DNA of 64,000 bases from Alphaproteobacteria bacterium. GTDB taxonomy: Bacteria > Pseudomonadota > Alphaproteobacteria > CAAHEQ01 > UBA3637. Both the position numbers and the translations under genes were made by a program. This document shows, piece after piece, positions 39,564-59,166 of this stretch. How positions within the stretch are numbered: position 1 is the first letter of the stretch; each line of letters opens with the position of its first letter. The notes under the pieces are model-generated. The model was given only the letters and a program-made list of their open reading frames with translations, was not told where the DNA came from and searched no databases. Location: NCBI GenBank assembly GCA_017539265.1, contig JAFYHG010000018.1, forward strand, positions 8,779 through 72,778. Direction: 5' to 3'.

Positions 39564-39566
39564 ATT

Positions 39567-42022: not shown

Positions 42023-42023
42023 A

Positions 42024-43476: not shown

Positions 43477-43938
43477 TCAAAGATATTTCAAAAGACGCCT
43501 TGTAATTATGGATTGCCCCTCTTCATAAAGTCTGTCAAGGTACAAGCGTTTCGTAACTCCGTCATTTAAGTCCGAAATATTCCTTATTAGATTATGGACA
43601 CAGTCTATGGAGGGTTTTCTGTGTTCACAAAGGAGCATTCCAAAATAGTACTTGTTCTTGTTCAGGAACTGTTCACTGAACTGGTACTGGCTGTCTATAT
43701 ATCCTAATTTGCGGAGGTACTTATAGCATTTAGTTATAAATTGAGCATCTTCTGTTTGGTCAGAGTAAGGGGGATTGGAGAGTTCATCTGCAACCTCTTC
43801 ATCGACATTTTTGGTGTTTTTAGGTGCGGGTGGCACAAGTTCCTCCGGTGTATTCAGATGCTTTCTGATTTTCCTCATATTTTCGGCAATATCTTCAAAA
43901 CTTACAATCATGAATAATTTCCTTTTAGTAATAGACAT
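43477..43938 (-). CDS. hypothetical protein conserved at the element's tRNA-distal end
   Basis: ORF of 153 aa. A remnant of a homolog lies at the same relative position in the neighbouring element. Confidence 0.5.
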   Translation of the reverse strand: MSITKRKLFMIVSFEDIAENMRKIRKHLNTPEELVPPAPKNTKNVDEEVADELSNPPYSDQTEDAQFITKCYKYLRKLGYIDSQYQFSEQFLNKNKYYFGMLLCEHRKPSIDCVHNLIRNISDLNDGVTKRLYLDRLYEEGQSIITRRLLKYL

Positions 43939-43988
43939 CTGTATTTATAAAGAAAATGATTAAAAAATGGAATTTTTTAAAAAAGATC

Positions 43989-44017
43989 TTGGCTTTTAAA
44001 ATGATCGGCTATATAGT
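43989..44017 (+). promoter_or_regulatory. candidate promoter (island promoter cassette, copy A)
   Basis: TTGGCT-17 nt-TATAGT followed by cccgggcc. Paralogous to 47186-47214. Confidence 0.5.
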
Positions 44018-44060
44018 CCCGGGCCCCGGGCAAGACTGGGGTAACTGAAAGGATAAAAAT

Positions 44061-44432
44061 ATGCTGGAACAACAAATGATACAAAGCGATAACCTGAATA
44101 CCATTATGGCAAATTGCTATGGCACAGAGAATTATTACACAAACAACTATTTGAAATACAATTACACAGACGGAATTAAAACTTTCTGTGAACAGGCATC
44201 CGCTTATTGGTTATTGAGCCTTATCCAAGGGGTTTATACAAAATATCCTCAAATGCGGAAAGATTTAATTGCTATAACACTAATGGTAAATGATGACAAT
44301 ACTGCCATTATTACCTTTACCGATGAAAAAGGTCAATTTTATAAGCAGCGTATTCCTTATACGGATTGTCCGGTAGGAGAATGGAAATTTTATTTTGAAA
44401 ACAATGTATTTTTCTGGAATGGAGAATATTAA
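44061..44432 (+). CDS. hypothetical protein (resembles the DUF6876 plasmid/ICE family, from memory)
   Basis: CYGTENYY...YTDGIKTFCEQASAYWLLSLI motif block. Confidence 0.4.
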   Translation: MLEQQMIQSDNLNTIMANCYGTENYYTNNYLKYNYTDGIKTFCEQASAYWLLSLIQGVYTKYPQMRKDLIAITLMVNDDNTAIITFTDEKGQFYKQRIPYTDCPVGEWKFYFENNVFFWNGEY

Positions 44433-44433
44433 T

Positions 44434-44865
44434 ATGAATAAAGAACAAATTAAAGAAGCAATATTAGGGAAAAAAGATTGTCATGGGGAAGAAACACCTC
44501 TCTGTCAATTTTCAACATTCCATCCGGATATGGAAATGGTGGAGATATTATTAAAAGGTGCGGATATTAATAAATCTTTTAATCACCAACCGATGGCATG
44601 GGTATTTCAATTCTGTGAACCGAATTGGGATGAAATGCTCACGCTTTTGTTCAAATACAAATACCATGCCTTACATCTGGACAGGAAAAGCGATTTTGAA
44701 AGTTTACTGCAACTTTTATCCAGAGTTAAACCGGAAACCGTGATGTATGTCTTAAAAATAATGAAGAAACATAGGTTTCGACCGACATTTGAACAGATTG
44801 ATTACATAAATAAATCAAAAGAGGATTTTAAAAAGGAGTTTAAATGGAAAGACTGGGTGAAATGA
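44434..44865 (+). CDS. hypothetical protein, one degenerate ankyrin-like repeat
   Basis: The ATG at 44434 follows the upstream stop. EMVEILLKGADIN segment. Confidence 0.4.
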   Translation: MNKEQIKEAILGKKDCHGEETPLCQFSTFHPDMEMVEILLKGADINKSFNHQPMAWVFQFCEPNWDEMLTLLFKYKYHALHLDRKSDFESLLQLLSRVKPETVMYVLKIMKKHRFRPTFEQIDYINKSKEDFKKEFKWKDWVK

Positions 44866-45317
44866 CAAAAGGTTTGTTAAAAGCAATCAATGAAAGGAAT
44901 TGGCGAGAAATTAAAAGGCTGGTTCACTTGGGCGGAAACTTAAATGCCGCTTACGATCCGTTTGGAAATACACCCTTTTTATATGCCATGCATATTTTTA
45001 AGAAAGCGGAAGAAATTGAACGCTTGATTAAATTAGGTGGAGATGTGACCTATAAAAACAGGGTGGGAAAAACAGCCTTGATGATAGCAGTTGAAAATGG
45101 GTGTGAACCGATAACGCCTTGGGTTATGGTGGATTATGGAGCGGACATTAATGCACAGGATGCATTGGGAAACACCGCCTTAATGATTTGTTTAGAATCC
45201 AGATTATATACCAAGAAACTGCTTTATGCCCTGATAGATTACGGGGCAGATTTAACCAACCTGAAGAATAAGGAAGGGAAAACAGCGTTTGATATACTAT
45301 ATGATGAATTAGAGTAA
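44844..45317 (+). CDS. ankyrin repeat protein
   Basis: SD aaggag 5 nt before the ATG. Repeats GNTPFLYAM...LIKLGGDV, GKTALMIAVENG, GNTALMICL...LIDYGADL. Confidence 0.75.
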   Translation: MERLGEMTKGLLKAINERNWREIKRLVHLGGNLNAAYDPFGNTPFLYAMHIFKKAEEIERLIKLGGDVTYKNRVGKTALMIAVENGCEPITPWVMVDYGADINAQDALGNTALMICLESRLYTKKLLYALIDYGADLTNLKNKEGKTAFDILYDELE

Positions 45318-45336
45318 TCACTTTTGCGGAGAAGTG

Positions 45337-47076
45337 TTAACTAATCCGCAAATCTTTAATAGTTAATTCTTTGGTATTATTATCTTGGGGAAAATCTTTC
45401 CTGTCTTTTTCCCCAAAACCATATTCTTTTCGGCAATTTTCTAATTTGTTCCAGTCTTGCACACGATATGCATAAAGAGCAGATCGGGGATACATAATAC
45501 GCTTTCTTTGTCCAACAAAGGGGATTGATGTCTTGGTTCGTTTCTTTTTATCCGCCATCCTCTTTTTTGCTAACCAACTGATACTTTTTTCCAGATAACT
45601 TGCAGCAACTTTAGGTGACATCCATCCTGCATGAAGTGCATAACGGAGATGTGGTGATCCACTTGGTTTCCCTTTTCCTTCCAATCCCAAAGATGATATA
45701 ACGGATTGATAATTATGACTTAAAAGCATTTCCTTAAATACTTCTTTTTCTCGTTCTCTTTGGGGAGTGTTTTCATTAGTATACGCAATATTAGCGATTG
45801 TTGATTTATCACTTAAAGTGCATTCCTCAAAATCAAATCTCTTTAAGAAAGAAATATTCTCCAGAACAAGGTTACATCCCTCAAAAGAAGTCTGACTAAA
45901 GGAAACATCTCCCCCGAAAAGAGTGTTCCTTATAATAAAGTGCCGACTTCTTGGCGTTGCGTTAAACTTCAATTCTGAATTATTTAATAAAAAGGCACTA
46001 GATCTATTAAAAATACAGTTATGGATATAAAAACTTGTGTGAAATAAACTATTTCTAAAATCAAACTTACCATTTACAGTGCACTGCTCAAATGTTATAG
46101 CGTGCTTAATTTCCCTTGCGGGTGCAAAATCTTTCTCAAAGAAGCAATGATTAAAAGTGACTCTTGCTCTTATCGCATCATGGGGACAGACATAGTTAGC
46201 GGAAAATAGACAATCTTTGAAGAAAACACCTTCCATTGGATTAAATGCCCCATGAAAGCATATCAAATTCCAAAAGAATTCCTGCTCTTTTCTACCAAAT
46301 TCTACATTTTCTATTATAATAATAGAGCGACAATATTCGGAAGGAACTATTTTATATTGATGAGGTTTCTTGATTGTCTTGGTTGCCTGCGGGTGTTGTA
46401 GAAATACAATCTTATCTATTTCCTTTTTAATTTCAGGAGATTTGGTTTGTTCCGCCAGCATATAAAAAGGAGTACGGATTTCTTTCAAAAAGTCTGGATA
46501 CAAAACGGTTGGCAAGTGTTTTGTCAGTTGAACGGGTGAATTTCCAAACTTTTTGAACAGGTAAAGCAGTTCTCTTAAAAAATATCTGCCATTATTACCG
46601 ACTTTAGTTCTTATTCGTGCTAATGCTCCGACCATTCCTTTGGCATCTGCTAGGTCTTCAATATCTTGTGTTGTAATTTTGCCTCTTTTGTAATCATCTG
46701 TATCAATTTCAAAACAGGCAGAAAAGATATCTTGGAAGGTACGGATACATAACCTTAATGTTTGGTCAACACCTATTGGGTAATAATCGGGATGCGTAAA
46801 TGCATCAGGATATCCCTTCTCTGGTTGTTTTGTTTTAATGTATGTTTGTAAAATGTTTGGATAGACATCCGTCCAAAAATCTAAATTCAAAGATTTGAAC
46901 CGACCTTCTGGTCCATAGACCAGTTCTTCTTGGTAATCTTCATCTAAAAAAAAGTTTGGGCGTTCCAGTTTCATAAAAAACTCATATAAGTTGAAAAAGT
47001 TGGGGGGATTATACCACAAAATCTCCCAAAAGTCCAGAAGAACAAGAAATGTTAAAAAATCCATCTTTTTTAACAT
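45337..47076 (-). CDS. hypothetical protein: unknown N-domain + beta-helix/pentapeptide-like repeats + C-terminal excisionase-type HTH
   Basis: Periodic F.[NDQE][CST].F units across residues about 300-440. C-terminal MSPKVAASYLEKSISWLAKKR...IPFVGQRKRIMYPRSALYAY. The start is uncertain. Confidence 0.5.
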   Translation of the reverse strand: MLKKMDFLTFLVLLDFWEILWYNPPNFFNLYEFFMKLERPNFFLDEDYQEELVYGPEGRFKSLNLDFWTDVYPNILQTYIKTKQPEKGYPDAFTHPDYYPIGVDQTLRLCIRTFQDIFSACFEIDTDDYKRGKITTQDIEDLADAKGMVGALARIRTKVGNNGRYFLRELLYLFKKFGNSPVQLTKHLPTVLYPDFLKEIRTPFYMLAEQTKSPEIKKEIDKIVFLQHPQATKTIKKPHQYKIVPSEYCRSIIIIENVEFGRKEQEFFWNLICFHGAFNPMEGVFFKDCLFSANYVCPHDAIRARVTFNHCFFEKDFAPAREIKHAITFEQCTVNGKFDFRNSLFHTSFYIHNCIFNRSSAFLLNNSELKFNATPRSRHFIIRNTLFGGDVSFSQTSFEGCNLVLENISFLKRFDFEECTLSDKSTIANIAYTNENTPQREREKEVFKEMLLSHNYQSVISSLGLEGKGKPSGSPHLRYALHAGWMSPKVAASYLEKSISWLAKKRMADKKKRTKTSIPFVGQRKRIMYPRSALYAYRVQDWNKLENCRKEYGFGEKDRKDFPQDNNTKELTIKDLRIS

Positions 47077-47185
47077 TGCTTTTAAAGGATTTGAAAAATA
47101 AGGCTATTTTATTTTAACCTATATGCCCCAAATTATGAAATGTTTAATTTTAAAGAAAAAACTTATATTTTTTAACATTTAGGGC

Positions 47186-47214
47186 TTGGCTTTTCAAAAA
47201 ATCGGCTGTATGCT
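47186..47214 (+). promoter_or_regulatory. candidate promoter (island promoter cassette, copy B)
   Basis: TTGGCT-17 nt-TATGCT followed by cccgggcc. Confidence 0.5.
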
Positions 47215-47257
47215 CCCGGGCCGCAATAAAAGTTCAATTTTAACGAAAGGATACAAA

Positions 47258-47839
47258 ATGGTTAATCAAGTTTTTATTGACGACAAGAAAATTAAAGACA
47301 TCTTAACTTACATTCAGGGGATGAGACATGCTGAAATGATACGGATGATGTTTTTATGTTCACTGAATGGCATGAGGTCTATAAATTTCGCCTATCTCCA
47401 AGTAGGTGATGTTTATACTCCCGACTTTAAGGTTAAGGATGTCATTTGTTTGGATGCGGATAAAAATAAAGGAAAGTTCGGGTGTTCGTATTATCTTAAC
47501 AGCCAAATGAAGAAAGAGTTTAAGGAGTATTTAGGGTATTTGAAGGCTAAAAATGAAGAGATTACGCCAGAAATGTATTTGTTTACCTCACAAAAGATGG
47601 GAAAACCTTTCAACCGTGTGTCAATTTCACGGATGTTCGCAACCGTTTACAAAAAGTTCAACATTGAAGGAGCATCACACTTGGGGCGACATTTGTTCGT
47701 GAGTCGGCTTATCAATGCTGGAACTAATATCTGTTTGGTTCAGAAACTCGCCAACCATCGCAACATTGGCACAACCCAACGTTATTTTAATTATAACGAG
47801 AAAATGCTCTCAAATGCTGTGGAAAATGTAGTTTTATAG
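47258..47839 (+). CDS. small tyrosine recombinase, FimB/FimE-like size (catalytic domain only)
   Basis: SD aaagga. 193 aa. HLGRHLFVSRL and LANHRNIGTTQRYF catalytic motifs. Confidence 0.75.
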   Translation: MVNQVFIDDKKIKDILTYIQGMRHAEMIRMMFLCSLNGMRSINFAYLQVGDVYTPDFKVKDVICLDADKNKGKFGCSYYLNSQMKKEFKEYLGYLKAKNEEITPEMYLFTSQKMGKPFNRVSISRMFATVYKKFNIEGASHLGRHLFVSRLINAGTNICLVQKLANHRNIGTTQRYFNYNEKMLSNAVENVVL

Positions 47840-47850
47840 CTGTGTGGTAG

Positions 47851-48113
47851 CCTAAAAGTGTATATAATTTTAAGTTATATCTCTTTTTCTTCTTCTTGAA
47901 TTAGAACATGTTCTAATCCACAGAGTATTTTATAGATTCCGAGGAATCTTGTTTGAACTAGTAATTTTTTTAGTTCTTTAAATTTAGCATGTATTTGTAT
48001 CAAAATTATTTTTTCTTTAAAAATTTGATTGGAATTTTTCATAGTAATATCCTTTCTTAAAAAAATAAGGGAACATTAAAGTCCCCATCTATTTCAACTC
48101 ATACACTTTTAGG
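47851..48113. repeat. 13-bp perfect inverted repeats flanking a 237-bp segment (candidate invertible element or MITE)
   Basis: cctaaaagtgtat at 47851-47863 and atacacttttagg at 48101-48113. Internal 18-bp palindrome attagaacatgttctaat at 47900-47917. Confidence 0.55.
47875..48042 (-). CDS. possible 55-aa ORF inside the IR-flanked segment
   Basis: aaaggatattactATG SD/start. MKNSNQIFKEKIILIQIHAKF... No homology judged. Confidence 0.3.
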   Translation of the reverse strand: MKNSNQIFKEKIILIQIHAKFKELKKLLVQTRFLGIYKILCGLEHVLIQEEEKEI

Positions 48114-48161
48114 TATTACATGTTATTTAATGATTGCGCCAAGTGTTTGATGCATTTGTTT

Positions 48162-49130
48162 TTATGGTGTTTTTTGTAATTTCTTAAATTGGTAAAATAC
48201 AGATGCCGGCGAAACACCGAAATAGTCGCCAATTTGTCTAAAACTCATTCCAGCTGTTTTCATTCGTACCAATTGTTTGCTATCCACTTTAAAGTCTTCC
48301 CAGCCTTTATTTTTAACTAAATCAAATTTTTTTATAACCCTGTAGATACTCGCTGGATGGGCATTTACCTTTTTTGCAATTTCTTTTCCCGAAACACCAG
48401 AAAAATACAATTTTTTTATAAGTTCTTCCTGCTTTCCCAACCGACTATTCAATTTAATTTGATCAGGTGTCCGGGTTAATCCCATTTTTTTAATTTCTTG
48501 TTCAAGAAGTTTATGAGAGCATCCTAATTTTTCTGCTATAAAGGAAATGGATCTTCCTTCAGCAAACATCTCTTTTATCTTATCCTTTTTAAGGTCTAAT
48601 TTCTTCAGTTTAGGTGCTTCTAAATTATGTAAAAGAATGAAATTATACAATGTTGAATAGCAAACATTATATTTTTGTGCAATGGCTTTTCTAGAGACAC
48701 CTTTTAATAATAGGTCTTGTATATCATCTTTATAGTGGTCTATTCTGGTCCAGTTATGGCGAGGTTCTGGTTTTAACCCCAATAATCTTTGTTCTTCTAA
48801 TGTTTTTTTGCCTTTTTTATAGACCTGTATACGATCAAGTGATGCGACATAAATACCGCTTTCTTTTTCAAATTTTATGAGTGTTCTGCGGCATATTTTC
48901 AATTTTTTACAGATATCTTCACGCGTTAGCCCTAATTTATAAAAATGTTTTATTTTTTCGGGATTAAGTTTTATTTCCCGAGTATGTGGTTCTCTTTTCC
49001 ACCCTAAATCTTTTAGATAATTACGAAGGGTAGAAAGACTTATATTCATACGATCCGCTATCCCGCCCAAGGAAAGGTCAGATTTGTAGAGTTCTTTTAA
49101 TTTGTCTATATCTAGTTCAATTTTGTTCAT
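48162..49130 (-). CDS. DNA-binding protein with six tandem helix-turn-helix modules
   Basis: Six units of the form [IL]K.[LM]Y..G.S...IA.K.......[LI]...[IL]KK..L, e.g. GVSGKEIAKKVNAHPASIYRVIKKF. Confidence 0.6.
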   Translation of the reverse strand: MNKIELDIDKLKELYKSDLSLGGIADRMNISLSTLRNYLKDLGWKREPHTREIKLNPEKIKHFYKLGLTREDICKKLKICRRTLIKFEKESGIYVASLDRIQVYKKGKKTLEEQRLLGLKPEPRHNWTRIDHYKDDIQDLLLKGVSRKAIAQKYNVCYSTLYNFILLHNLEAPKLKKLDLKKDKIKEMFAEGRSISFIAEKLGCSHKLLEQEIKKMGLTRTPDQIKLNSRLGKQEELIKKLYFSGVSGKEIAKKVNAHPASIYRVIKKFDLVKNKGWEDFKVDSKQLVRMKTAGMSFRQIGDYFGVSPASVFYQFKKLQKTP

Positions 49131-49146
49131 TTATGGGCGGATTTTC

Positions 49147-49174
49147 AAAAAAAGCGGAGTATTTCTACTCCGCT
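49147..49174 (-). terminator. Rho-independent terminator after the island adhesin
   Basis: On the minus strand, agcggagta-gaaa-tactccgct forms a 9-bp stem followed by ttttttt. Confidence 0.65.
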
Positions 49175-49234
49175 CACTTAAATTAACTAATAGGAAGGGA
49201 GACCGAGAAATCAGTCTCCCCGGAGTTCTTCGCA

Positions 49235-52200
49235 TTAGAATCCAAAAGTCACACCGACTTTGTAGGACACGCTGTCGTTGCCACCATAGGCAGCACCGGC
49301 GTTCAACAATGTCCGGTCGTTGAGATAATGGAATGCACCAACAGCCAAGGCTTGGTTGTTCTTGTATCCGCCCAAAGCCGCACTGACTTGCGTTTTGTGG
49401 ACATGATCCAGAGGAACAAGACCTGCCAAAGCGTTGTTAGCAGCTAACCCGTTTTCCATCTTGGTTTCTAACTTGTTGATACGGCGATCAACGCGGGCGA
49501 ATTCAGCACCCAAGTTATCATTCAAGTTGGTCAAGAGGTCAGAAATGCTTGACGGATCACCAACGGCTTGTGCACCAACAGCACCACCATTAGCTTGTTC
49601 TTTTCCTTTAAAGAACTTTAAGTTCTCTAAAGAAGACAAATCGCCAACAGTTTCATCAACGGCTTCAAAAGCAGATTCTGTAGCTGATTCTAACAATGCA
49701 ATTTGGTTATCTGTGTAAGTATTAGCATTGGCCTCAGCTGTATCAGCAGCACCATATGCATCATATGTATTAGCTGCAATAGCACCACTGATAGATGTAA
49801 TCTTACCATCTGTTTCAACGATGTTCAAAGACAAACCATCAGCACCTGCTGCTTGTGATACATTAGCATCTAAAGCATTAACTTTACCATCTGCGTAAGT
49901 CTTTGCATCAGCCAAAGCATTAGCAGCAGCACCATATGCATCATATGTATTAGCTGCAATAGCACCGCTGATAGCTGTAATCTTACCATCTGTTTGTGTA
50001 ATACTTAATGATAAGCCATCAGCACCGGCTGCTTGTGATACATTAGCATCCAAAGCATTAACTTTACCATCTGCGTAATTTTTGGCATTGGTTTCTGCTG
50101 TATTAGCATAACCTTTTGCTTGAGTATTCACATAAGTAACTGCTTCTGCAAGAGAACCAACCTGTTCGGTTGATACTTCTAAAGCGGTACGCATTGTATC
50201 CAGATTACCGACACGGCTATCAAGACCTTTGATTTGTCCATCTAAAACAATGTCAGCACCTGTCAATGTTGTTGCAGCTGTCAGGTAGTTTGTATCGGCG
50301 TATTCGTTGTTAACTGCATTCGAATTGGCCGAAGTAATACCCAATGTGTTATCAACCCATTGTTGTTTCTCGTTGAAGATAGCTTCTGCTTCTGTCCGTG
50401 TATAGACATCTGCGAGATTTGCTTTGTTAGCATCCAAAGCATCCAAAGCACCACGAACTGTTGTCGTTGAGCCTTCGCCTTGCTTTAACACAGAACCGTC
50501 TACAGCTTCTTCATCCGCATAGTTAACATCACCGATGGTGTCATTTGTGCCTTTGATTTGCGCATCCAAAACAATGTCAGCACCTGTCAAGGTTGTTGCA
50601 TCCGTCAGGTAGTTTGTGTCGGCGTATTCGTTGTTAACTGCATTCGCATTAGCCGAAGTAATACCCAATGTGTCATCAACCCATTGTTGTTTTTGTGCAA
50701 AGATAGCTTCTGCTTCGCTTCTGACACCGGCAACAGCCGTTGTAACAGCGGTATTAATCTTGCCATCAACAACTTTGCCCAATGAATCATCATAGGCCGC
50801 TACACTAGCCTCATGAGTAGCTGTATCAGTTGTGAAGTTAGTATTAGCTGTTTGCAATGATCCTTCCCAATTATTCAGGTTAGTTACTGTTGCTTGGTCA
50901 GTCGCCATGGTAGTAGCAATCTTATCCTTATTTGCAACGCTGTCATCATAGTAACCTTTTAATTCGGATTGTCTATTGGCCAGAGCCGTTACATCAGATT
51001 CGTAAGCATTAACTAGGTCTGCTTTGATACCTGCTGTAGTTGCATCATCTGCTGATACTGCTGTTCCATTTTTCTTTAAGACATAGCCATCTTCTGACGC
51101 TTCGATGGTATAATGGTCACCTGCAGTATTCGTCAATTCATAATTGGCAATATCAACACTTCCAGTTCCTGCGCTAGATGCAGTGATATCAAGTTTACCA
51201 CCTAAATCACTCGTCTGAACTGTATCTGTTAATTCTGCAACCGCTGTGCTACCTGCGACAGAAGTAGAATTACCATCTTTATCATATGTGACATATGTAT
51301 AATCATCGGCAGTCAGAGTACCACTATCATAGGACAGGTCGGCCACAGCAGAAATACCATCTACAGTAGCAGCTGCAGAAGTTGCAGTGTAATCTGCCGA
51401 TGTATAGGAAGCACCAGCGACTAAATCTGTGGGATTACCTTCTGGATCTGTAAAGCCATAATCCGCGGCATCCGGTGCATCACCAGGAGCGTTTGCAGAA
51501 ATGCTTGACACTTTATCAGACAATGTCTTCAAAGCAGTGTCCAAAGCGGTATCAGCACCCGTCAAGGTTGTTGCAGCTGTCAGGTAATTTGTTCCGGTGT
51601 ATTCGTCGTTAACTGCATTCGCATTAGCCGAAGTAATACCCAATGTGTTATCAACCCAGGTTTGCTTTTCGTTGAAGATAGCTTCTGCATTATCCCATAA
51701 TGTTCCCAAAGCGGTATCTGTATAGTTTTTCGCATAAGTCTTTGCATTTGCTTCAGCTGTATTCGCTTTCGTTGTTGCATCAGTAGCAGCGGCTGTAATC
51801 GCTTCGGATTTAGCAGTAGCAGCAGCACCATAAGCATCATATGTATTTGCAGCAATGCTACCAGAAATACCAGTAATCACACCATTTTCTTGAGTGATGC
51901 TCAAAGCCAATTGACCATTACCTGCGGCTGCAGCTTGAGTTTCTGTTGCATTCAAAGCATCAATTGCATCACCAACTGTTTTGCTCACAGAACCATCGCC
52001 TGTACCATTCAAGGTAGCAATAGCGCTCTCGTTTGTTGTGATTTTACCTACAAGAGTAGAAGTAATACCAGAGTTGACGGCAGCTAATTGTTCTGTTCCC
52101 AATTTTGCTTGGTATGTATTCGCCAAATCTAAAGCATCAATTGCATCACCAACTGTTTTGCTCACAGAACCATCGCCTGTACCATTCAAGGTAGCAATAG

Positions 52201-52726
52201 CATCTGCATTGGCTTTAACCTGTGTATCCAATAACTTATCTGCGCCAGCCATTGTTGTTGCGCCTGTCAGATAATTTGTACCGGTATACGCATTTGTTAC
52301 CCCAGTTGTTCCGGTGGATAAATCAACGCCCAATGTTTTCTGGGAAATGACACCACCTGTTAATTCTACAAAATCACCAACAGCAGTATTGACAACGGCA
52401 TAATCACCAGCATCTGAACTACCCGCTAGCAATTGTGCTAAAGCATCACGAGTGTATTTGGGGTGAGCCGCTGCAAAATCTGCATCAATGGTGTAATCTG
52501 TTCCACCAAGATTTGTAGTGTAGGTGTCTGTCCCCGTTGTGATGGCTGTATGAAAATTAGTTAAGTTTGTTGCAACTGAAGCAGTAGGGTCATAAGCCTC
52601 ATCTGCTGCCTTTGCACCTGTGGCAACGATTAAGCCCACTGCAAAGGCATTAAGCAGAAAACATTTCTTCAAAACACTACGGTATCTCGCAGAAAGTTCT
52701 CTGATTGTTGTTTTTGTATATTTCAT
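49235..52726 (-). CDS. trimeric autotransporter adhesin (YadA-like), island-borne
   Basis: Extended signal MKYTKTTIRELSARYRSVLKKCFLLNAFAVGLIVATGAKA. Long internal repeats. Anchor ...GAFHYLNDRTLLNAGAAYGGNDSVSYKVGVTFGF. Confidence 0.85.
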   Translation of the reverse strand: MKYTKTTIRELSARYRSVLKKCFLLNAFAVGLIVATGAKAADEAYDPTASVATNLTNFHTAITTGTDTYTTNLGGTDYTIDADFAAAHPKYTRDALAQLLAGSSDAGDYAVVNTAVGDFVELTGGVISQKTLGVDLSTGTTGVTNAYTGTNYLTGATTMAGADKLLDTQVKANADAIATLNGTGDGSVSKTVGDAIDALDLANTYQAKLGTEQLAAVNSGITSTLVGKITTNESAIATLNGTGDGSVSKTVGDAIDALNATETQAAAAGNGQLALSITQENGVITGISGSIAANTYDAYGAAATAKSEAITAAATDATTKANTAEANAKTYAKNYTDTALGTLWDNAEAIFNEKQTWVDNTLGITSANANAVNDEYTGTNYLTAATTLTGADTALDTALKTLSDKVSSISANAPGDAPDAADYGFTDPEGNPTDLVAGASYTSADYTATSAAATVDGISAVADLSYDSGTLTADDYTYVTYDKDGNSTSVAGSTAVAELTDTVQTSDLGGKLDITASSAGTGSVDIANYELTNTAGDHYTIEASEDGYVLKKNGTAVSADDATTAGIKADLVNAYESDVTALANRQSELKGYYDDSVANKDKIATTMATDQATVTNLNNWEGSLQTANTNFTTDTATHEASVAAYDDSLGKVVDGKINTAVTTAVAGVRSEAEAIFAQKQQWVDDTLGITSANANAVNNEYADTNYLTDATTLTGADIVLDAQIKGTNDTIGDVNYADEEAVDGSVLKQGEGSTTTVRGALDALDANKANLADVYTRTEAEAIFNEKQQWVDNTLGITSANSNAVNNEYADTNYLTAATTLTGADIVLDGQIKGLDSRVGNLDTMRTALEVSTEQVGSLAEAVTYVNTQAKGYANTAETNAKNYADGKVNALDANVSQAAGADGLSLSITQTDGKITAISGAIAANTYDAYGAAANALADAKTYADGKVNALDANVSQAAGADGLSLNIVETDGKITSISGAIAANTYDAYGAADTAEANANTYTDNQIALLESATESAFEAVDETVGDLSSLENLKFFKGKEQANGGAVGAQAVGDPSSISDLLTNLNDNLGAEFARVDRRINKLETKMENGLAANNALAGLVPLDHVHKTQVSAALGGYKNNQALAVGAFHYLNDRTLLNAGAAYGGNDSVSYKVGVTFGF

Positions 52727-53005
52727 TAACTATACCTTTCTTTTTAATATTAAAATTAAAGTTACGAGGAGTTCTCTTTTTCAAAACCCTCGTCCGTCAT
52801 CTTACACAAATGTTCCTTTATGAAATGATTTGAAGAAAAGTGATAAAAATAGCATACTTTTGTCTTATATATTATTGTATTTTCAATATGTTATATTCAA
52901 TTTTAATTTTTTTAAAAAAAATGTTAAAAAATGTTTGCAATTTAAGGAACTATTTTTTGCATATGAAATTATCGGCAATAAATAACTTTAACAAAAGGAT
53001 ACAAA

Positions 53006-53617
53006 ATGGCAACTATCGCATATATCAGGGTTAGCAGCGATAAACAAACCTGTTCTAACCAACACTTTACGATTAAAGAATACACAAAATCTCACAATAT
53101 CCACATTGATAAATGGGTTGAAGAGACTATTTCCAGCAAGAAACCTTTGGAAAAGCGGGAATTAGGCGTATTATTAAATAAAATGGATAAAGGCAGTTTA
53201 TTAATTGTAACGGAAATCAGCCGTCTTGCCCGTAATCTATACGAATTGGCGGGCATATTGCAAAATGCTATTAAGAACGACATTACTGTTATTAGTATCA
53301 AGGAAAACTATCAGTTCAAAAATGATATCCAGTCCAAAATTATGGCATATACTTTTGGGCTTGCCGCAGAAATTGAGCGTGATTTGATCTCAACCCGCAC
53401 TAAAATGTCATTGGATAAATTAAAAAAGCAAAATGTTAAATTAGGCAGACCATTCGGGGCGGAGACAAAATGTTTAAAACTATCCAAAAACCGCAAGAAA
53501 ATAAGGGAATTATTAGGAAAAGGTGTCAGTCAGGCCAAAATATCCAAAATCCTTGGCGTCCACCCGACAACCATGTGCCGGTTCTTGAAACGAGTGGATG
53601 TGTCAACCTGTTCCTGA
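53006..53617 (+). CDS. serine recombinase (resolvase/invertase family)
   Basis: AYIRVSSDKQ catalytic serine region, SRLARN motif, C-terminal HTH GVSQAKISKILGVHPTTMCRFLKR. Confidence 0.85.
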   Translation: MATIAYIRVSSDKQTCSNQHFTIKEYTKSHNIHIDKWVEETISSKKPLEKRELGVLLNKMDKGSLLIVTEISRLARNLYELAGILQNAIKNDITVISIKENYQFKNDIQSKIMAYTFGLAAEIERDLISTRTKMSLDKLKKQNVKLGRPFGAETKCLKLSKNRKKIRELLGKGVSQAKISKILGVHPTTMCRFLKRVDVSTCS

Positions 53618-53767
53618 TGGGAATGTTCCTCGCCAAAAGGCGGCTAACCACTTTGTTTTTGATCTTGTATGACGGCATCAGGCAGTTTAATCCCACTTAT
53701 TATACAAAAGCCCTCTATTTTAATCCCAAATAAAAGGAATCTATTATCAAATTCACCTCTATAATAG

Positions 53768-53800
53768 TTCTATTTTATTTCTATTATAATTCTATTATAG
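53768..53800. repeat. three tandem AT-rich 11-mers (DUE-like)
   Basis: ttctattttat / ttctattataa / ttctattatag, head to tail. Confidence 0.6.
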
Positions 53801-53854
53801 GAACAAAAAACACCCAGATAGGCCTTGTGTTTATTGGCGTTTCTCAAATTGTAC

Positions 53855-54047
53855 CGAACATAACAGTCTCCGCTACCGAACATATGGGCACCGGGAGCGA
53901 ACATATGAGCATCGCTAGCGAACATAACAGTCTCCAAAATTGCCCAAACCGAACATATAAGCATCGCCCCCCTAAAAAACGAACATATCAACCTCTAGCG
54001 AATAATTTTTTTGTAAATCGGTGAAATCCATCATCGAGCGAATAAAT
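53855..54047. repeat. iteron-like direct repeats (CGAACATA core)
   Basis: Cores at 53855, 53877, 53898, 53919, 53950 and 53980, plus CGAATAA variants at 53999 and 54039. Spacing 21-22 or 30-31 bp. Confidence 0.6.
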
Positions 54048-54076
54048 ACCCCTGTAAATCAATTTTAGGAGGTTTT

Positions 54077-54589
54077 ATGAGTAAAAGTAAATCAGATTTG
54101 TCCCTCACAAAGCGTGTGTTGTTGGACTTTGTAAAATTTAAGACCCAAAACGGGCATCAATTCTTTGCGAGCAACGAGTATATTGCCAAAGGTTTAGATC
54201 TAACCGAGAATACTGCCAAGACATTTGTTAATGACCTTATAAGAGAAGGATACCTTTATAAAGAGATAGATAAGAGAGGCATGAGAATTTTATCCCTAAC
54301 CGGTAAGGAATACAAACCATTGTTTGAAGATTTGAGGAACTTTGATAAGAAAGTACTTAAAGAGGACAGAGATAACTTTCAAAGGGATAACAAATATTTG
54401 AACCAACAGTTAGAACAGGAAACAGCATATAAGGAACAACTATTAAACGAAAATACAGATTTAGTCCTTTCCAATGCTGAACTAACCCATCGTGTTCAGG
54501 AACTGGAAAAGAGAGTTACTGCTTTGGAGAACATCTTTTATAAAAATGGAATGACAAAGGAACAACTGGAGGATTTATTGAATAAATAA
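54077..54589 (+). CDS. winged-helix + coiled-coil protein, candidate Rep/regulator for the adjacent iterons
   Basis: SD aggagg. N-terminal wHTH-like FASNEYIAKGLDLTENTAKTFVNDLIREGYLYK. C-terminal heptad-rich segment. Confidence 0.45.
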   Translation: MSKSKSDLSLTKRVLLDFVKFKTQNGHQFFASNEYIAKGLDLTENTAKTFVNDLIREGYLYKEIDKRGMRILSLTGKEYKPLFEDLRNFDKKVLKEDRDNFQRDNKYLNQQLEQETAYKEQLLNENTDLVLSNAELTHRVQELEKRVTALENIFYKNGMTKEQLEDLLNK

Positions 54590-54628
54590 AAATGTGGGCA
54601 TGCTTTCAACCACACTTCATAAAAATAC

Positions 54629-54655
54629 ACCCTCAACTCTCGTTGAGGGTTTTTG
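54629..54655. terminator. bidirectional terminator hairpin between convergent genes
   Basis: accctcaac-tctc-gttgagggt forms a 9-bp stem with a T-run after it and an A-run before it. Confidence 0.55.
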
Positions 54656-55022
54656 CTTGTTTCTGTTGATCCAATGCCCAATCCAGAATCTGTTTCCTTC
54701 GTTCAAAGGCATTCTCTTTCGGGAACTTTTCTTCATAGCGGTCAAGCATAGCGTAAAGCAAAAGTGAAGCAAACGGATTCTTGTTAAATGCGGCATAATC
54801 CCTGGCAGTCCAACCTCTATAATCCATATAATTCGGATTTGCTCCATGTTCCAGCAGATATTCAACAACCGTCAAGTCACCCGATAGCATACAACAAACT
54901 TGAAGTATTGATGACAATTGAGTGTTTATCGGTTGATTGATATCATCCAGTAGCGACACAACATACTTAACATCCTCAATTGTATCTACAAATACTTCAT
55001 CTTTATCTTCCTGATTTTCCAT
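54633..55022 (-). CDS. ankyrin repeat protein
   Basis: LEHGANPNYMDYRGWTARDYAAFNKN repeat and a preceding degenerate repeat. Confidence 0.6.
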   Translation of the reverse strand: MENQEDKDEVFVDTIEDVKYVVSLLDDINQPINTQLSSILQVCCMLSGDLTVVEYLLEHGANPNYMDYRGWTARDYAAFNKNPFASLLLYAMLDRYEEKFPKENAFERRKQILDWALDQQKQAKTLNES

Positions 55023-55206
55023 TTTTTGCCTCCGTTCTTTTGAAATCTAGTAAAAATTTAGCAACTGCCTTTTGATATTCAACCTTTTCCGGTTCTAGTA
55101 ACTCTTCGTATATATCTAGCAATTTCTCCAAAGTATCCTTTAATTTATCTTCGGGCGTATGCCTTAAAGTGAACTGAACCGCTTTTAATAAAGACATTCC
55201 CAACAT
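55003..55206 (-). CDS. hypothetical small protein
   Basis: 67-aa ORF overlapping the ankyrin gene start. Preceded by a 24-codon mini-ORF (55207..55280) with SD aaaggag and a TAATG junction. Confidence 0.35.
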   Translation of the reverse strand: MLGMSLLKAVQFTLRHTPEDKLKDTLEKLLDIYEELLEPEKVEYQKAVAKFLLDFKRTEAKNGKSGR

Positions 55207-55448
55207 TATTGCTCCTTTTCATCTCTGATGATCTGCTCCATGCATATTTTCATGGCATTTAATATTCTTTCTGCTATCATTTTGACTCCTTTATTTTAAT
55301 TCAAGGATATTTATCGGGGCGATTTCAAAATGGAATCATTTTCAAAAAACGAATCCTTTTTGAGCCGATTTGGGGGATTTTAGATTATTTTTGAAGAAAT
55401 TCCCCGAAAAAACATTCAAAAAAATACCCCCCTTTTTCATTTTTTTTA

Positions 55449-55487
55449 CATCAATATCCATCAATATCGCCATTTTTACATCAATAT
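55449..55487. repeat. three phased CATCAATAT direct repeats
   Basis: Copies start at 55449, 55459 and 55479 (10 and 20 bp apart), in an A-tract-rich spacer upstream of 55607. Confidence 0.5.
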
Positions 55488-55606
55488 AGATTCCCTTCAA
55501 AAAAAAGTTATTGCGGCAATTTTATTTCTGGATATTCTTTTGCTTACCAATGCGGGGTGGTCTCGCAAAGGTGCCAACAATCTAACGAAAAGAAAGGAAA
55601 TTAAAA

Positions 55607-56113
55607 ATGTTAGAAAATACAGAAAATCAAACCATGGAATCCTTTATGAGTTCCTTTGGGATTGTTCCCATGACAACCATTAAGGATGAAGGATTGCTTT
55701 CATTCGACAATTGCAAAGACAGAATTCTGAAAATGATTGAATTAAATATTCAGAACTTTAAGAACAATCTTTGGAACGAGAGAAATTACATGATGAAGAT
55801 GCTGGTTGACCTTGATCCAAAGCGTAATAAATCCATTTGCACAGTCCGTTTAGGCGGCAAAAGGGTTTATAAATGCAATTGTGAAACCTTAAACACACCG
55901 AGAAAAGTTGAATTTTTAACCAAGTTCTATGAAGGCGTTTCCAGAGGGTTCTTGGATAAAAAGATTACGGAATTCTGTGAACGACAGGTTGCTTTGGCAG
56001 AAGACCGTAAGAAAATCCAACGGGAAAAGCGTAAAGCACAAAGAAAAGCAGATCGTGAAGCCTTAAAAAAGCAAGAGGCTGAAGTGCAATCACATCAGCC
56101 CCACATTGCTTGA
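55607..56113 (+). CDS. hypothetical protein with basic C-terminal tail
   Basis: SD aaagga. 168 aa. C-terminus KKIQREKRKAQRKADREALKKQ. Confidence 0.45.
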   Translation: MLENTENQTMESFMSSFGIVPMTTIKDEGLLSFDNCKDRILKMIELNIQNFKNNLWNERNYMMKMLVDLDPKRNKSICTVRLGGKRVYKCNCETLNTPRKVEFLTKFYEGVSRGFLDKKITEFCERQVALAEDRKKIQREKRKAQRKADREALKKQEAEVQSHQPHIA

Positions 56114-56179
56114 TTATTTAACAGAGAGTGGAAAACTGGAACTTTTTCACTCTCATAACCTAACAAAAGGAATTATACT

Positions 56180-56341
56180 ATGACTGAAATTAAAAGTCAA
56201 ATAAAAATGCGTGATGTATTGCGGCAACTCCATCAACCGGAAGAGGTCTACAGGGAATATCTTTATAGTTCTGAAGATGAGCAAAGATTTTTAGAACATG
56301 TTGTGGACACAATTTTAACCAAGGGCTATATGCCGGCATAA
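56180..56341 (+). CDS. possible 53-aa ORF (below the ORF-track cutoff)
   Basis: aaaaggaattatactATG. MTEIKSQIKMRDVLRQLHQPEEVYREYLYSSEDEQRF... Ends 15 nt before the next gene. Confidence 0.3.
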   Translation: MTEIKSQIKMRDVLRQLHQPEEVYREYLYSSEDEQRFLEHVVDTILTKGYMPA

Positions 56342-56356
56342 GAAAGGAGGTAAAAG

Positions 56357-56926
56357 ATGAAAAATATTGAAGAGATGACCTTAAAAGAGGCAATAGACGA
56401 ATTATCAGAAATGCTTTTGGATTACTTGCCGGACAATGATGATAACGACAGATTTGAGGAACTATATGAAAAAATTAGAGAAGAAGTAGATGATATAGAT
56501 GTTGATACAAAAGATTTTATAGCACATGTGGAGTTTTATCCACTTGATGGAGATGAGATATATGAAACAGACACCAATATTATCTCTGGAGATTTTTTTG
56601 ATTGGCGGCATTCAAGTGACTTTGGTCCGCCAGCAGAAGCATGGCTCGCGGTTTTTAATGCCAGTCAGTGTTCACTTCAAAAAAAGTGTGCAACTTATCC
56701 TTTGGAAAAGATTCAAAAAGAATTGACAGATGATGTGTTGCAAAAGGTCTTCAAGGGACATGGTTTAGTAGATTTTAGATACCTATTGGCAAATCCTCGT
56801 AAGGATGTCGTGGGATGGGCATTGAAGCACAAGTATGAACTTAATTTCAGAGGTATACCACCAGAGTTCATAGAGGAGCGTCAGGCAATTCCTGAACTAA
56901 AGGAACTTATCTTAAAGACCTTATAA
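56357..56926 (+). CDS. hypothetical acidic protein
   Basis: SD aaggagg. 189 aa. Asp/Glu-rich N-terminal half. Confidence 0.45.
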   Translation: MKNIEEMTLKEAIDELSEMLLDYLPDNDDNDRFEELYEKIREEVDDIDVDTKDFIAHVEFYPLDGDEIYETDTNIISGDFFDWRHSSDFGPPAEAWLAVFNASQCSLQKKCATYPLEKIQKELTDDVLQKVFKGHGLVDFRYLLANPRKDVVGWALKHKYELNFRGIPPEFIEERQAIPELKELILKTL

Positions 56927-56969
56927 AAAAACAGAGCAAATTCCATAAAGGGCTTGACATTTGCGACCT

Positions 56970-56983
56970 GATCTGATCAGATC
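56970..56983. promoter_or_regulatory. 14-bp perfect palindrome (candidate operator) in the integrase promoter region
   Basis: gatctgatcagatc lies 11 nt after a TTGACA at 56954-56959 and upstream of the ATG at 57007. Confidence 0.35.
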
Positions 56984-57006
56984 GCGATCCTTAAAAGGGA
57001 GAATGA

Positions 57007-58779
57007 ATGTCATACCACTATCCTGGACTGATTATATTATACGGGCAATTTTATATTAGGGTTAGAATACCCGCCTGTTTAAGAATGATCGCCAGATGCA
57101 AAGAGATAAGATATTCATTACAAACAAAAATCTATCAGGAAGCAATTGAAAAGTACCACGTGGAATTTGCTCATTTACAAGCATTTTTAACAATTTTTAA
57201 GGATATAATTATGAAAGTAAATGAGAATAAACAATTAACTTTAACTGAAACTGATGTGGACAAATTATTGCTCCACAGGTTAGAACAAATCCAAACCTTT
57301 TTGGAAAATAATGTAGATGAAATCAAGTCCCGACATAAGTCCGAGGCAGATATTATTTTGCTCTCAAGGGATAAAAAAGAAGCGGATATCCGCAAATTAA
57401 TGCAGGATATGATTTTGGGTTATTTGAAAGGACTGGTGGATAAAAATAAGGCAAATATCACTTTGCGGATGATTTACACTCAACTCAAAAATAAAGAGAT
57501 TGAGTTGGGGTTAGTGCAACAGGGGGAAAAATATGATTGGTTAAAAGCATTTTCCACCCACATTAACCATTTAGACCATTATGCCCAAAAATCTGTTAAG
57601 GCAATCCAAGAGGAAAAGCATTATGCCCCAACCAACCCAAAGGTTATAACCCTTTTGCGCACTTATGATTCCATGAAAACGGATGAGCGAATTCACTGTT
57701 CTATGGCAGCAACCCATTGGAAAAAGTTTTTCAAACGCTATCTGACGATGAAAAAGAATATTAAAGGGACATCTAATAAAAGGTTGTGTAAATTGGAGAA
57801 ATGTATTTGGTTAGCATTTGCACTTATGAAACGGGAGTATGTAGAAGATGTAACCAAACAGGATTGTCGCCAACTTTGCGAACTGATACATCGAGTTCCG
57901 AAACGGTGGCAAGAAAAAATTAGGGGAGATGATATTTTCCAAATTTTGACAGATAACCCTGAAAAGGCACTATCTAAAACAACCATTCAAGGATACTTAA
58001 CAGTATTTAAGGAGTACATGCGTTATGCTGAAAGAGAGGAGATTATTTCCAATAATTTGAATAGCGCAGTAGATGTACCTATCAATGTAAAACCATTTCA
58101 GCGAGAACCCTTTACAGCGAAAGATTTACACAAGATGTTTAATTCAGAAACATATATAGATCCCCGTATCAGAAAGGATTTACCCAAATTCTGGATACCA
58201 ATTATAGCCCTTTACCATGGTTGTCGTTTGAATGAAATCTGTCAATTGGATGTCAATGATATTGTGCAAGAAAAGGGAATACCTTGTATCAGCATTAATG
58301 CAAATGCCCCAGATAAATCCGTTAAAAATAAAGGATCTGAACGAATAATACCACTACATCCAAAACTAATTGAAATGGGATTTTTATATTATGTTGAATA
58401 TCAAAAACGAGGGCACAAACGAAAATTGTTTGACCTAAAACAGATTAAAAACGGGATGTATGGTAGTCCGGTCCAACATTGGTTTGCACGATATTTAGAT
58501 AGTATTGGGATAACGGAAACAACCAAAGTTTTTCATTCGTTCCGGCATACTTTTGAGACAATGGCAACAGAAAAGAGAATTCCCCCACAATATCAAAATG
58601 CAATTTGTGGGTGGACAGAACAAGGCATTGGACAAAGACTTTATGCCCACAAGAAGGACATGAACATTATGTTAGAAGAAATCAGCAAAATTAACTATCC
58701 AATCAATCGTGAACTGTCAGAACTAAAGAAGTCTTTCATGGATTCATTTGTTGTCAGGTCTTTAAGGGCAAATGGATAA
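57007..58779 (+). CDS. tyrosine integrase (tRNA-targeting, long N-terminal arm domain)
   Basis: N-terminal FYIRVRIP...EIRYSLQT. Catalytic CRLNEICQL, HSFRHTF and GQRLYAH motifs. Adjacent to tRNA-Arg. Confidence 0.85.
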   Translation: MSYHYPGLIILYGQFYIRVRIPACLRMIARCKEIRYSLQTKIYQEAIEKYHVEFAHLQAFLTIFKDIIMKVNENKQLTLTETDVDKLLLHRLEQIQTFLENNVDEIKSRHKSEADIILLSRDKKEADIRKLMQDMILGYLKGLVDKNKANITLRMIYTQLKNKEIELGLVQQGEKYDWLKAFSTHINHLDHYAQKSVKAIQEEKHYAPTNPKVITLLRTYDSMKTDERIHCSMAATHWKKFFKRYLTMKKNIKGTSNKRLCKLEKCIWLAFALMKREYVEDVTKQDCRQLCELIHRVPKRWQEKIRGDDIFQILTDNPEKALSKTTIQGYLTVFKEYMRYAEREEIISNNLNSAVDVPINVKPFQREPFTAKDLHKMFNSETYIDPRIRKDLPKFWIPIIALYHGCRLNEICQLDVNDIVQEKGIPCISINANAPDKSVKNKGSERIIPLHPKLIEMGFLYYVEYQKRGHKRKLFDLKQIKNGMYGSPVQHWFARYLDSIGITETTKVFHSFRHTFETMATEKRIPPQYQNAICGWTEQGIGQRLYAHKKDMNIMLEEISKINYPINRELSELKKSFMDSFVVRSLRANG

Positions 58780-59052
58780 AAGGGCAAAGGTGTTCAAAAT
58801 ACATTTTAGGCAACCGTCATGGGAATCATATTAGGGTGTTCAAGCGGTAAAAAATCCAAAAGGTGAAATGGTATCAATGTCATCAAAAAGTTCGTGGCAA
58901 AAAGTTTAGGATGAAAGGGGTTGATGAAAGTGTTTTTGAATAGCCAGATAATGCTGAAAACTAGCTGTAAAAAGCACATGTCACAGAAGTCTTTGTGTCC
59001 AAGGATTGTGGCCAACCCCTGTGGCCAAGCAAAATCACCCTGTTTCAGGCAC

Positions 59053-59076
59053 AAAAAAAGCCTTGATAAACAAGGC
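59053..59076 (-). terminator. element-supplied terminator downstream of tRNA-Arg
   Basis: On the minus strand, gccttg-tttat-caaggc followed by ttttttt. The same hairpin occurs at 43223-43240. Confidence 0.5.
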
Positions 59077-59089
59077 ATTATTCTAAAAG

Positions 59090-59106
59090 TGGCGCGCCCG
59101 GCAGGA
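59090..59106. repeat. att copy 3 (within the tRNA)
   Basis: tggcgcgcccggcagga corresponds to tRNA positions 60-76. Confidence 0.85.
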
Positions 59107-59166
59107 TTCGAACTTACAACCTTCTGATCCGTAGTCAGATGCTCTATCCAATTGAGCTACGGGCGC
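59090..59166 (-). tRNA. tRNA-Arg (anticodon ACG)
   Basis: Manual fold: acceptor GCGCCCG/CGGGCGC, D arm GCTC/GAGC, anticodon stem TCTGA/TCAGA with loop CTACGGA, T loop TTCGAAT, encoded CCA. The T stem GTAAG/CCTGC has one A-C mismatch and one G-U. Confidence 0.85.

Follow-up and report, generated by a model that had tools for sequence, protein, structure and literature searches.

Salmonella genomic island 1 (SGI1) is an integrative, helper-dependent island whose vegetative origin (oriV) combines an AT-rich region containing an inverted repeat with four direct repeats bound by Rep, and the island is stabilised when its excised circle replicates (PMC7826253). HTH_36 proteins are a recognised Rep type of small alphaproteobacterial plasmids, which have iteron-like repeats upstream of rep (PMC3832669, PMC6209633), and the organisation of classical iteron origins has been summarised (PMC3832669). 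We analysed a 64,000-nucleotide stretch of contig JAFYHG010000018.1 (assembly GCA_017539265.1; hereafter, the window) from an uncultured alphaproteobacterium. Within it, an island integrated at a tRNA gene carries, in this order, a block of AT-rich boxes, an array of six direct repeats, and a gene for a winged-helix protein of 170 amino acids (aa). This layout and its cognate protein are real, and a role in replication is plausible. We tentatively read the region as the vegetative origin and initiator gene of the tRNA-integrating island, a reading to which we give somewhat less than an even chance.

The core of the array, CGAACATA, occurs as six exact copies on the + strand, with starts at 53855, 53877, 53898, 53919, 53950, and 53980 and start-to-start distances of 22, 21, 21, 31, and 30 bp; an earlier reading made from the letters alone (the sequence-only reading) had reported six direct repeats at 21-22 or 30-31 bp spacing. 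No exact copy was present elsewhere in the 64-kb window. Shuffled controls gave 1.65 copies per 64 kb, scattered over both strands, and one-mismatch matches outside the array were at background level (33 observed versus 36 expected). The 8-bp core is only part of the full repeat unit, which is about 17-20 bp long (e.g., CGAACATAACAGTCTCC). Distances of 21-22 bp and 31 bp correspond to two and three helical turns, and the 17-20-bp unit has the size of plasmid iterons, whereas the contiguous repeats of centromeres measure 7-12 bp. Examples of plasmid-iteron unit size and phase are provided by SGI1 (PMC7826253) and Paracoccus plasmids (PMC3832669). As in an iteron-type oriV, at least three direct repeats of 17-22 bp stand in helical phase beside a candidate initiator gene, the ATG of which lies 79 bp from the array end. 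No frame remains open across the array in the related loci, which rules it out as coding sequence, and an Rfam scan of the region gave no family match to the array. Two CGAATAA variants at 53999 and 54039, which had been counted with the repeats, are present but do not belong to the array; the copy at 53999 is not conserved, and that at 54039 lies within a universal ATAAATA box.

Upstream of the array, three AT-rich 11-mers, TTCTATTTTAT, TTCTATTATAA, and TTCTATTATAG, stand head to tail at 53768-53800 with spacings of 11 and 11. CTATT boxes start at 53715 and 53741, and the palindrome CTATAATAG occupies 53759-53767, so that both the tandem 11-mers and the related CTATT copies of the earlier reading were recovered. 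The segment 53739-53800 is 84% A+T. Among the 60-bp windows of the 15.8-kb element, that of the box region ranks second in instability, at -0.99 kcal/mol per step versus an element mean of -1.27, a difference of more than 3 standard deviations. The array is therefore adjoined, as an iteron-type oriV would be, by an AT-rich, easily melted region with repeats of the 11-13-mer kind, which may serve in unwinding.

The comparison set comprised 55 related loci (labelled L001 onwards), 33 from genome assemblies and 22 from metagenomes, all of them from uncultured Alphaproteobacteria living in the guts of ruminants and other animals. Their upstream organisation was uniform, and arrays were present in the related loci, contrary to the absence of repeats from homologous elements that the sequence-only reading had listed among its refuting outcomes. 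At least 10 loci shared a 22-22-21-31-31 geometry in which the outermost cores stand near -222 (first) and -96 (last) relative to the ATG. The core itself differed by clade, being CGAACATA or TGAACATAT, GGAAACAAC, CGAATATAT, CGGATATAC, or GGCATTATTTGATTTC (in short, GAACATA, GGAAACAAC, GAATATAT, CGGATATA, and GCATTATTTGATTTC). Recognition-helix residues 44-56 of the protein varied together with the iteron class: NTAKTF accompanied GAACATA, S/G-SAKVF accompanied GGAAACAAC, NTAKSF accompanied GAATATA, and KTSAKNM accompanied GCATTATTTGATTTC. Repeat units were 81% identical within an array versus 34% for units at the same position across classes, and the distance between iteron consensuses was correlated with the distance between N-domains (Spearman rho 0.42, p 0.004). 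Because the repeats switch with the recognition helix and are homogeneous within each array, they are predicted to be the protein's own binding sites, and there is strong indirect support for regarding them as specific sites of the adjoining protein. The pattern is that expected of a cognate protein-DNA pair undergoing concerted evolution on a fixed structural scaffold.

In several metagenome-assembled genomes (MAGs), two or three islands of this family occurred together, differing in iteron class and recognition helix. The co-resident copies were L003/L005, L015/L023, L011/L016/L029, and L004/L025/L027. Decaying copies were also seen; in L011 the gene was truncated and the array degenerate, and in L008 the gene was intact beside the same degenerate array. 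The most divergent relatives of the module, at 36-39% identity and with CGGATATA-type repeats, were located in L048 (10622-18984) and L053 (4701-16648), where the flanks encoded defence cargo, including type I restriction-modification, ABC-3C (CTD7), DUF3732, and a UvrD-like helicase, as well as a Y-family polymerase.

Other parts of the upstream region did not follow the iteron class. In the alignment, TATTATAATA and CTATTATAAT-n-CTATTRTAG were kept across all iteron classes, and the ATAAATA box at 54042-54048, possibly a promoter -10 element, was present in all clades irrespective of iteron sequence. Being constant across classes, the AT-rich and ATAAATA boxes are evidently not read by the determinant of iteron specificity. 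No canonical sigma-70 promoter was called upstream of the winged-helix gene on the + strand. Two further functions were considered for the AT-rich boxes and rejected. A res/hix site of the small serine recombinase was the first. That gene stands directly upstream here, as had been pointed out, but this adjacency is not fixed. The recombinase was upstream in 12 of the 19 loci with enough upstream sequence, the remaining 7 kept the boxes with no recombinase within 5-6 kb, and no matching inverted copy was found across the recombinase. Arm-type sites of the integrase were the second. The module lies 5 kb from the right attachment site (attR) and 10 kb from the left one (attL), and 13 related loci had no att-derived repeat within 6 kb upstream; the only strings shared with att were 14-15 nt long, in L006 and L014, and look like chance.

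A simple explanation of the array would be that the protein is a plain autoregulated transcription factor, with the six repeats forming a long cooperative operator that sets its own level and perhaps controls a neighbouring promoter as well, and with no part for the site in replication or segregation in cis. Protein bound to the array could block transcription, since the array separates the AT-rich, TATAAT-containing boxes from the gene, and both the MarR-like fold and the missing DnaA and integration host factor (IHF) boxes (520 bp upstream, 17 loci) would agree with this. Other observations are harder to accommodate. No further site was found in the element, including the promoter region of the operon that runs from o55607 to the integrase, which has different repeats of its own. 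With the CGAACATA core confined to the array within the element, the array is the only evident target of the winged-helix protein, which favours a cis-acting site over a regulon. The same conclusion is suggested by the six-site, 130-bp geometry and the AT-rich block, which are fixed across clades whose proteins share 32-90% identity, a constancy unexpected of a simple operator. In addition, the protein has no ligand-binding domain, and its N-domain matches initiator rather than repressor families (see below). We therefore regard plain autoregulation as decidedly improbable.

The gene begins with an ATG at 54077, preceded by AGGAGG at 54067-54072. Its sequence and an AlphaFold model bore out the earlier description of a gene with a strong Shine-Dalgarno sequence whose product has a winged-helix N-domain and a coiled-coil C-domain. 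In the model (predicted local distance difference test score, pLDDT, 78), the winged helix spans residues 10-74 and is followed by long helices at 87-125, 133-156, and 161-169. Residues 11-60 matched Pfam HTH_36 at 29.7 bits (gathering cutoff 25), a family also precomputed for many homologues. A match to DnaD_N was weak (E 0.0099, below cutoff), other winged-helix matches were sub-threshold, and the C-terminal half gave coiled-coil noise. The search against Rep-family profiles that had been proposed as a check thus succeeded for HTH_36 but found no match to Rep_3, RepA_N, RPA, TrfA, or other Rep families. Compared with PHROGs, the whole protein matched seven annotated families, all of them replication initiators, O-like initiators, or DnaD-like loaders. 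When the N-domains of 14 members were scanned, phrog_428 (replication initiation) was matched by 11, and phrog_186 (DnaD-like loader) and phrog_270 by 10 each; the function-annotated matches were to phage replication-initiator families only, and no repressor, terminase, or partition PHROG was matched by any of the 14. The PHROG matches were weak (best E 4e-6) and restricted to the winged helix. What was recovered was HTH_36 together with initiator PHROGs, and not the non-replicative regulator family that the sequence-only reading had listed among its refuting outcomes.

In an exhaustive N-domain profile search, 1.84 billion representatives yielded no more than 106 clusters at E <= 1e-3, the remotest relatives being HTH_36 plus DnaD_N proteins of 260-320 aa, one of them with DnaB_2. 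The fold search returned generic winged helices (MarR, ArsR, and DnaD type) and was not discriminating, and neither an NCBIfam scan nor a PDB sequence-profile search of the 170-aa protein gave anything useful. There were 154 close homologues, and every one with a named source came from Alphaproteobacteria MAGs. Bridging through distant HTH_36 proteins reached no annotated plasmid Rep and led to generic "helix-turn-helix" or "conserved phage C-terminal domain" proteins encoded on Leptospira and Paraclostridium replicons.

The combination of an N-terminal DNA-binding domain with a coiled coil would also suit a maintenance or segregation module. In that case, the array would be centromere-like and the protein a single-protein partition or tethering factor and autoregulator, acting on the excised circle or positioning the island DNA, with KfrA (RA3/RK2), pSK1 Par, RocS/RacA, and R388 StbA as analogues. 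KfrA of RA3 consists of an N-terminal helix-turn-helix (HTH) and a long coiled coil, binds a five-repeat operator at its own promoter, and serves stable inheritance (PMC7783346), and in Par, RocS, and RacA a winged helix at the N-terminus is combined with a central coiled coil, and the proteins bind repeated centromere-like sites (PMC11500499). The gene analysed here is monocistronic, being closed by the terminator that follows it, and has the array just upstream; moreover, the switching of specificity between co-resident elements would also agree with partition incompatibility. On the other hand, KfrA_N (at E <= 0.1) and DUF536 (RocS-like_C) were unmatched in Pfam, and the winged helix is of the MarR/DnaD type rather than the MerR type of Par, RocS, and RacA. 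In the fold comparison with these three, 8csh and 5i44 fell outside the top fold matches of the 170-aa protein. The sites of KfrA, StbA, TubR, and ParR consist of contiguous 9-12-bp repeats, unlike the 17-20-bp units here with their 21-22/31-bp phase; no ParA, ParB, or KfrC partner gene was found in the element, and the PHROG matches were solely to initiators. Partition further implies a replicating circle, so that an origin would still be required, and no other candidate for one was seen. Taken together, we consider a maintenance function unlikely, though the likeliest of the alternatives to an origin.

The element carrying the module has a G+C content of about 0.34-0.39 versus 0.43-0.49 in its flanks. 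The 3' 17 nt of tRNA-Arg (59090-59106) are repeated at 43255-43271, there with about 100 bp of flank identity, and at 38382-38398, and the element was accordingly taken to extend over 43272-59089. Related islands (L001-L035) use the 3' ends of at least seven tRNA genes (Ala-GGC, Arg-ACG, Arg-TCT, Glu-CTC, Leu-TAA, Leu-CAA, and Thr-GGT), always with the integrase beside the tRNA; in most loci, the integrase is located downstream of the module, at 50-78% identity. The backbone runs from the boxes, array, and winged-helix gene through one or two opposite-strand ankyrin genes, o55607, o56180, and o56357 to the integrase and the tRNA. Variable cargo lies to its left and here comprises a YadA-anchor adhesin, ankyrin and MORN proteins, and a multi-HTH protein; more distant relatives adjoin type I restriction-modification and ABC-3C defence genes. 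The suggestion that the element is an integrated plasmid was consequently not upheld, the module being part of the backbone of a family of tyrosine-integrase islands found at seven tRNA genes, with no other plasmid genes.

No relaxase, conjugation, or capsid gene was found in the element, so the island must rely on a helper, and the array might then be a helper-exploiting transfer or packaging signal. It would be either a transfer origin (oriT) with a TraM-like protein or a pac/cos site with a Nu1-like small terminase, with the helper's coupling protein or large terminase as the docking partner of the coiled coil. F TraM and lambda Nu1 are likewise small proteins that bind DNA through the N-terminal part and oligomerise through the C-terminal domain, with repeated sites directly ahead of their own genes. 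However, terminase small-subunit, TraM, and relaxosome accessory families were unmatched in Pfam and PHROG, and the viral contigs of IMG/VR held no relatives, so we judge such a signal to be very unlikely.

An origin is preferred on account of the length and phase of the repeat units, the unstable AT-rich 11-mers, the initiator-class N-domain, and the two precedents of HTH_36 Reps and SGI1. From these features we infer replication, iteron binding, melting, host-factor recruitment, and autoregulation as follows. The tyrosine integrase would excise the 15.8-kb element from tRNA-Arg, and the HTH_36 winged helix of the 170-aa protein would bind the six iterons on the same face of the helix. The coiled coil would join the iteron-bound copies of the protein into a higher-order complex, which could strain and open the adjoining AT-rich 11-mer region and recruit the host replisome. 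By binding there, the protein probably also represses its own promoter, and pairing of arrays through the coiled coil could limit copy number. Clade-wise switching of iterons and recognition helices would define incompatibility groups, allowing several islands to be present per cell.

Several findings weigh against an origin. The claim of a canonical iteron-plasmid layout holds in that the order is real, conserved, and co-evolving with the protein, but not with regard to the DnaA and IHF boxes and the two-winged-helix Rep, which are lacking. A conserved DnaA box (TTATCCACA within one mismatch) was not found in the 520 bp upstream at 17 loci, the single match being in L002, although this consensus may not be that of the lineage; nor was a conserved IHF site (WATCAANNNNTTR) in the same regions, with a single match in L006. 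No inverted half-iteron operator was seen at the promoter, and no helicase or primase gene in the element. The conservation of the AT-rich boxes as motifs suggests protein binding rather than mere meltability. In Pfam, Rep_3, RepA_N, RPA, TrfA, RP-C, IncFII_repA, Phage_rep_O, and DnaB_2 were all unmatched at E <= 0.1, and the small protein, modelled with a single winged helix and a coiled coil, is unlike two-winged-helix Reps. No homologue was detected in 72,556 plasmids (PLSDB, tblastn), 50,697 phages (INPHARED), or IMG/VR. The PLSDB search gave no match at E <= 0.01, in a set outside which the Paracoccus HTH_36 plasmids fall, and matches at E <= 10 were noise, the best being an uninformative 94-aa open reading frame on an Acinetobacter plasmid. 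Terminal overlap was absent from every whole-contig locus, and hence no circular contig was seen. Finally, KfrA and Par/RocS are architectural look-alikes that are not initiators. It is the absence of several classical features (DnaA and IHF boxes, an inverted half-iteron, a second winged helix, a match to established Rep families, plasmid, phage, or viral relatives, and circular contigs) that holds our estimate for an origin just short of even.

A broader proposal, which we advance with greater reserve and rate as less likely than not, is that the 170-aa protein, with its single HTH_36 winged helix and coiled coil, represents an undescribed minimal initiator family that acts on a fixed six-iteron scaffold (22-22-21-31-31 bp) without DnaA boxes, replicates excised tRNA-integrating cargo islands, and has switched specificity so as to form incompatibility groups, allowing several islands per genome. 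The islands concerned belong to uncultured gut Alphaproteobacteria and have genes for adhesin, ankyrin, and defence proteins as cargo. If the region is an origin, a lineage without cultured members or genetic tools would gain a small replicon, of about 0.9 kb, and SGI1 would be joined by a second, unrelated mobilisable island able to replicate in plasmid fashion once excised. The matched variants of iteron and recognition helix on a fixed scaffold constitute a natural dataset on the evolution of DNA-binding specificity and incompatibility. If the region is instead a maintenance or regulatory site, it would still be a clean case of protein-DNA co-evolution, of smaller general interest. The features of the locus are collected in Table 1.

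Table 1. Location of the candidate origin module and associated features in the window.
Feature	Position	Strand	Evidence
Integrated element carrying the module, inferred extent 15.8 kb	43272..59089	.	G+C, tRNA 3'-end repeats
Small serine recombinase, resolvase/invertase type, nearest Mpi family	53006..53617	+	Pfam Resolvase 1.6e-29
Left-edge block CTCGCCAAAAGGCGGCT ... GACGGCATCAGGCAGTT	53629..53687	+	alignment
AT-rich box region, candidate DNA-unwinding element or host-factor site	53714..53800	+	repeats, stability, alignment
Spacer between boxes and array, about 50 bp, conserved AAAAACACC at left end	53801..53851	+	alignment
Array of six direct repeats (iterons)	53852..53998	+	repeat search, shuffles, cross-locus alignment
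T-tract (54006-54012), ATAAATA box (54042-54048), Shine-Dalgarno AGGAGG (54067-54072)	53999..54076	+	
Gene for 170-aa protein, N-terminal winged helix (HTH_36) and C-terminal coiled coil	54077..54589	+	Pfam, PHROG, AlphaFold
Bidirectional intrinsic terminator between winged-helix gene and convergent ankyrin gene	54629..54650	.	terminator call
Tyrosine integrase (DUF6538 plus Phage_integrase)	57007..58779	+	Pfam
tRNA-Arg(ACG), integration target	59090..59166	-	tRNA call

The left-edge block was conserved in the window and in L001, L002, L004, L005, and L006, with variants in L007, L016, L017, and L022, and it accompanied the boxes even where the serine recombinase was kilobases away. This block (CTCGCCAAAAGGCGGCT ... 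GAYGGCNTNNGGCAGTT in the window, L001, L002, and L004-L006) forms the left limit of the backbone, at which the variable cargo starts, and upstream of the winged-helix gene, at a distance of 0.4-1.4 kb, many metagenomic contigs break off. It could be a site of cargo insertion or recombination. The serine recombinase next to it scored 240.8 bits against the NCBIfam Mpi family, below the cutoff of 272. To its left, 49235-53005 encodes a cargo protein, a YadA-anchor trimeric autotransporter adhesin of 1163 aa. The 280-bp intergenic region between the two genes is 92% A+T and the least stable DNA of the element, and no convincing inverted repeats for an invertible promoter were found in it. Further left, 48162-49130 (- strand) encodes a 322-aa protein with about six tandem resolvase-type HTH domains (HTH_7, HTH_38), homologues of which adjoin the serine recombinase in L011, L025, and L029. 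A second, small tyrosine recombinase of 217 aa is encoded inside the element at 47186-47839 (+ strand), and in L048 and L049 homologues of it, at 70% identity, are located close to the divergent winged-helix genes.

On the other side of the module, o55607 is the first gene of the operon that ends with the integrase, and three direct copies of CATCAATAT(C/A) are located upstream of it at 55440-55490. These copies look like the operator of a regulator other than the winged-helix protein; no CGAACATA-type site was present in the promoter region of this operon. The model of o55607 (pLDDT 85) had no informative fold match, and a role as a replication accessory protein was rejected, a weak Toprim match not being borne out. 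Adjoining the element, about 4.9 kb (38382-43271) is taken up by a tandem island remnant that lacks an integrase, contains MORN-repeat and unknown genes, and has copies of the tRNA-Arg 3' end as its limits. At the right end of the remnant, 43158-43254 shows near identity with the spacer between integrase and tRNA of the main element (58992-59089), which suggests that the remnant was mobilised in trans by the integrase of its neighbour.

Among described systems, KfrA (RA3, RK2), pSK1 Par, RocS, and RacA share with the module an N-terminal HTH or winged helix, a long coiled coil, and direct repeats near their own promoters, and differ from it in their KfrA_N or DUF536 domains, winged-helix subtype, repeat length and phase, and partition partners. 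Lambda-O-like and DnaD-like organisers of phages use an N-terminal winged helix of the same class on repeated origin sites and a C-terminal part for oligomerisation or recruitment of partners. Phage origins usually lie inside the initiator gene, and phage initiators are about 300 aa long and paired with a helicase-loader gene, a partner that is absent from the element here. Classical iteron plasmids (pPS10, pSC101, R6K gamma, P1, F, and RK2), in which the iterons set specificity, show the same order of AT-rich region, 17-22-bp iterons at a phase of about 22 bp, and rep gene. Whereas the protein described here has one winged helix, the Reps of these plasmids (Rep_3 or TrfA) contain two, and the plasmids usually possess DnaA or IHF sites and an inverted-repeat operator, which were not found here.

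The HTH_36 plasmids pAES7, pMARC3, pMOS2, and pAES1 of Paracoccus, as well as pYEE7 and pYEE8, share with the module the HTH_36 class, the bacterial class of the host, and iteron-like direct repeats upstream of rep (PMC3832669, PMC6209633). According to their descriptions, they have two to three repeats, in contrast to the fixed six-site array of the module, and those descriptions do not include the coiled-coil ending that the 170-aa protein has; unlike these plasmids, the module is chromosomally integrated together with an integrase. In concept and in its AT-rich-plus-repeats layout, the module corresponds to the oriV-RepA system of SGI1. However, SGI1 RepA is an initiator of the IncN2/N3 type, to which the 170-aa HTH_36 coiled-coil protein has no detectable similarity. 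The SGI1 origin lies downstream of repA and has several DnaA boxes, whereas the array here lies upstream of its gene and such boxes were not found, and the host is an uncultured alphaproteobacterium rather than Salmonella. An island-borne iteron replicon would be of a known kind, and what is new is the unusually small winged-helix coiled-coil protein and the fixed six-site scaffold with which it is paired.

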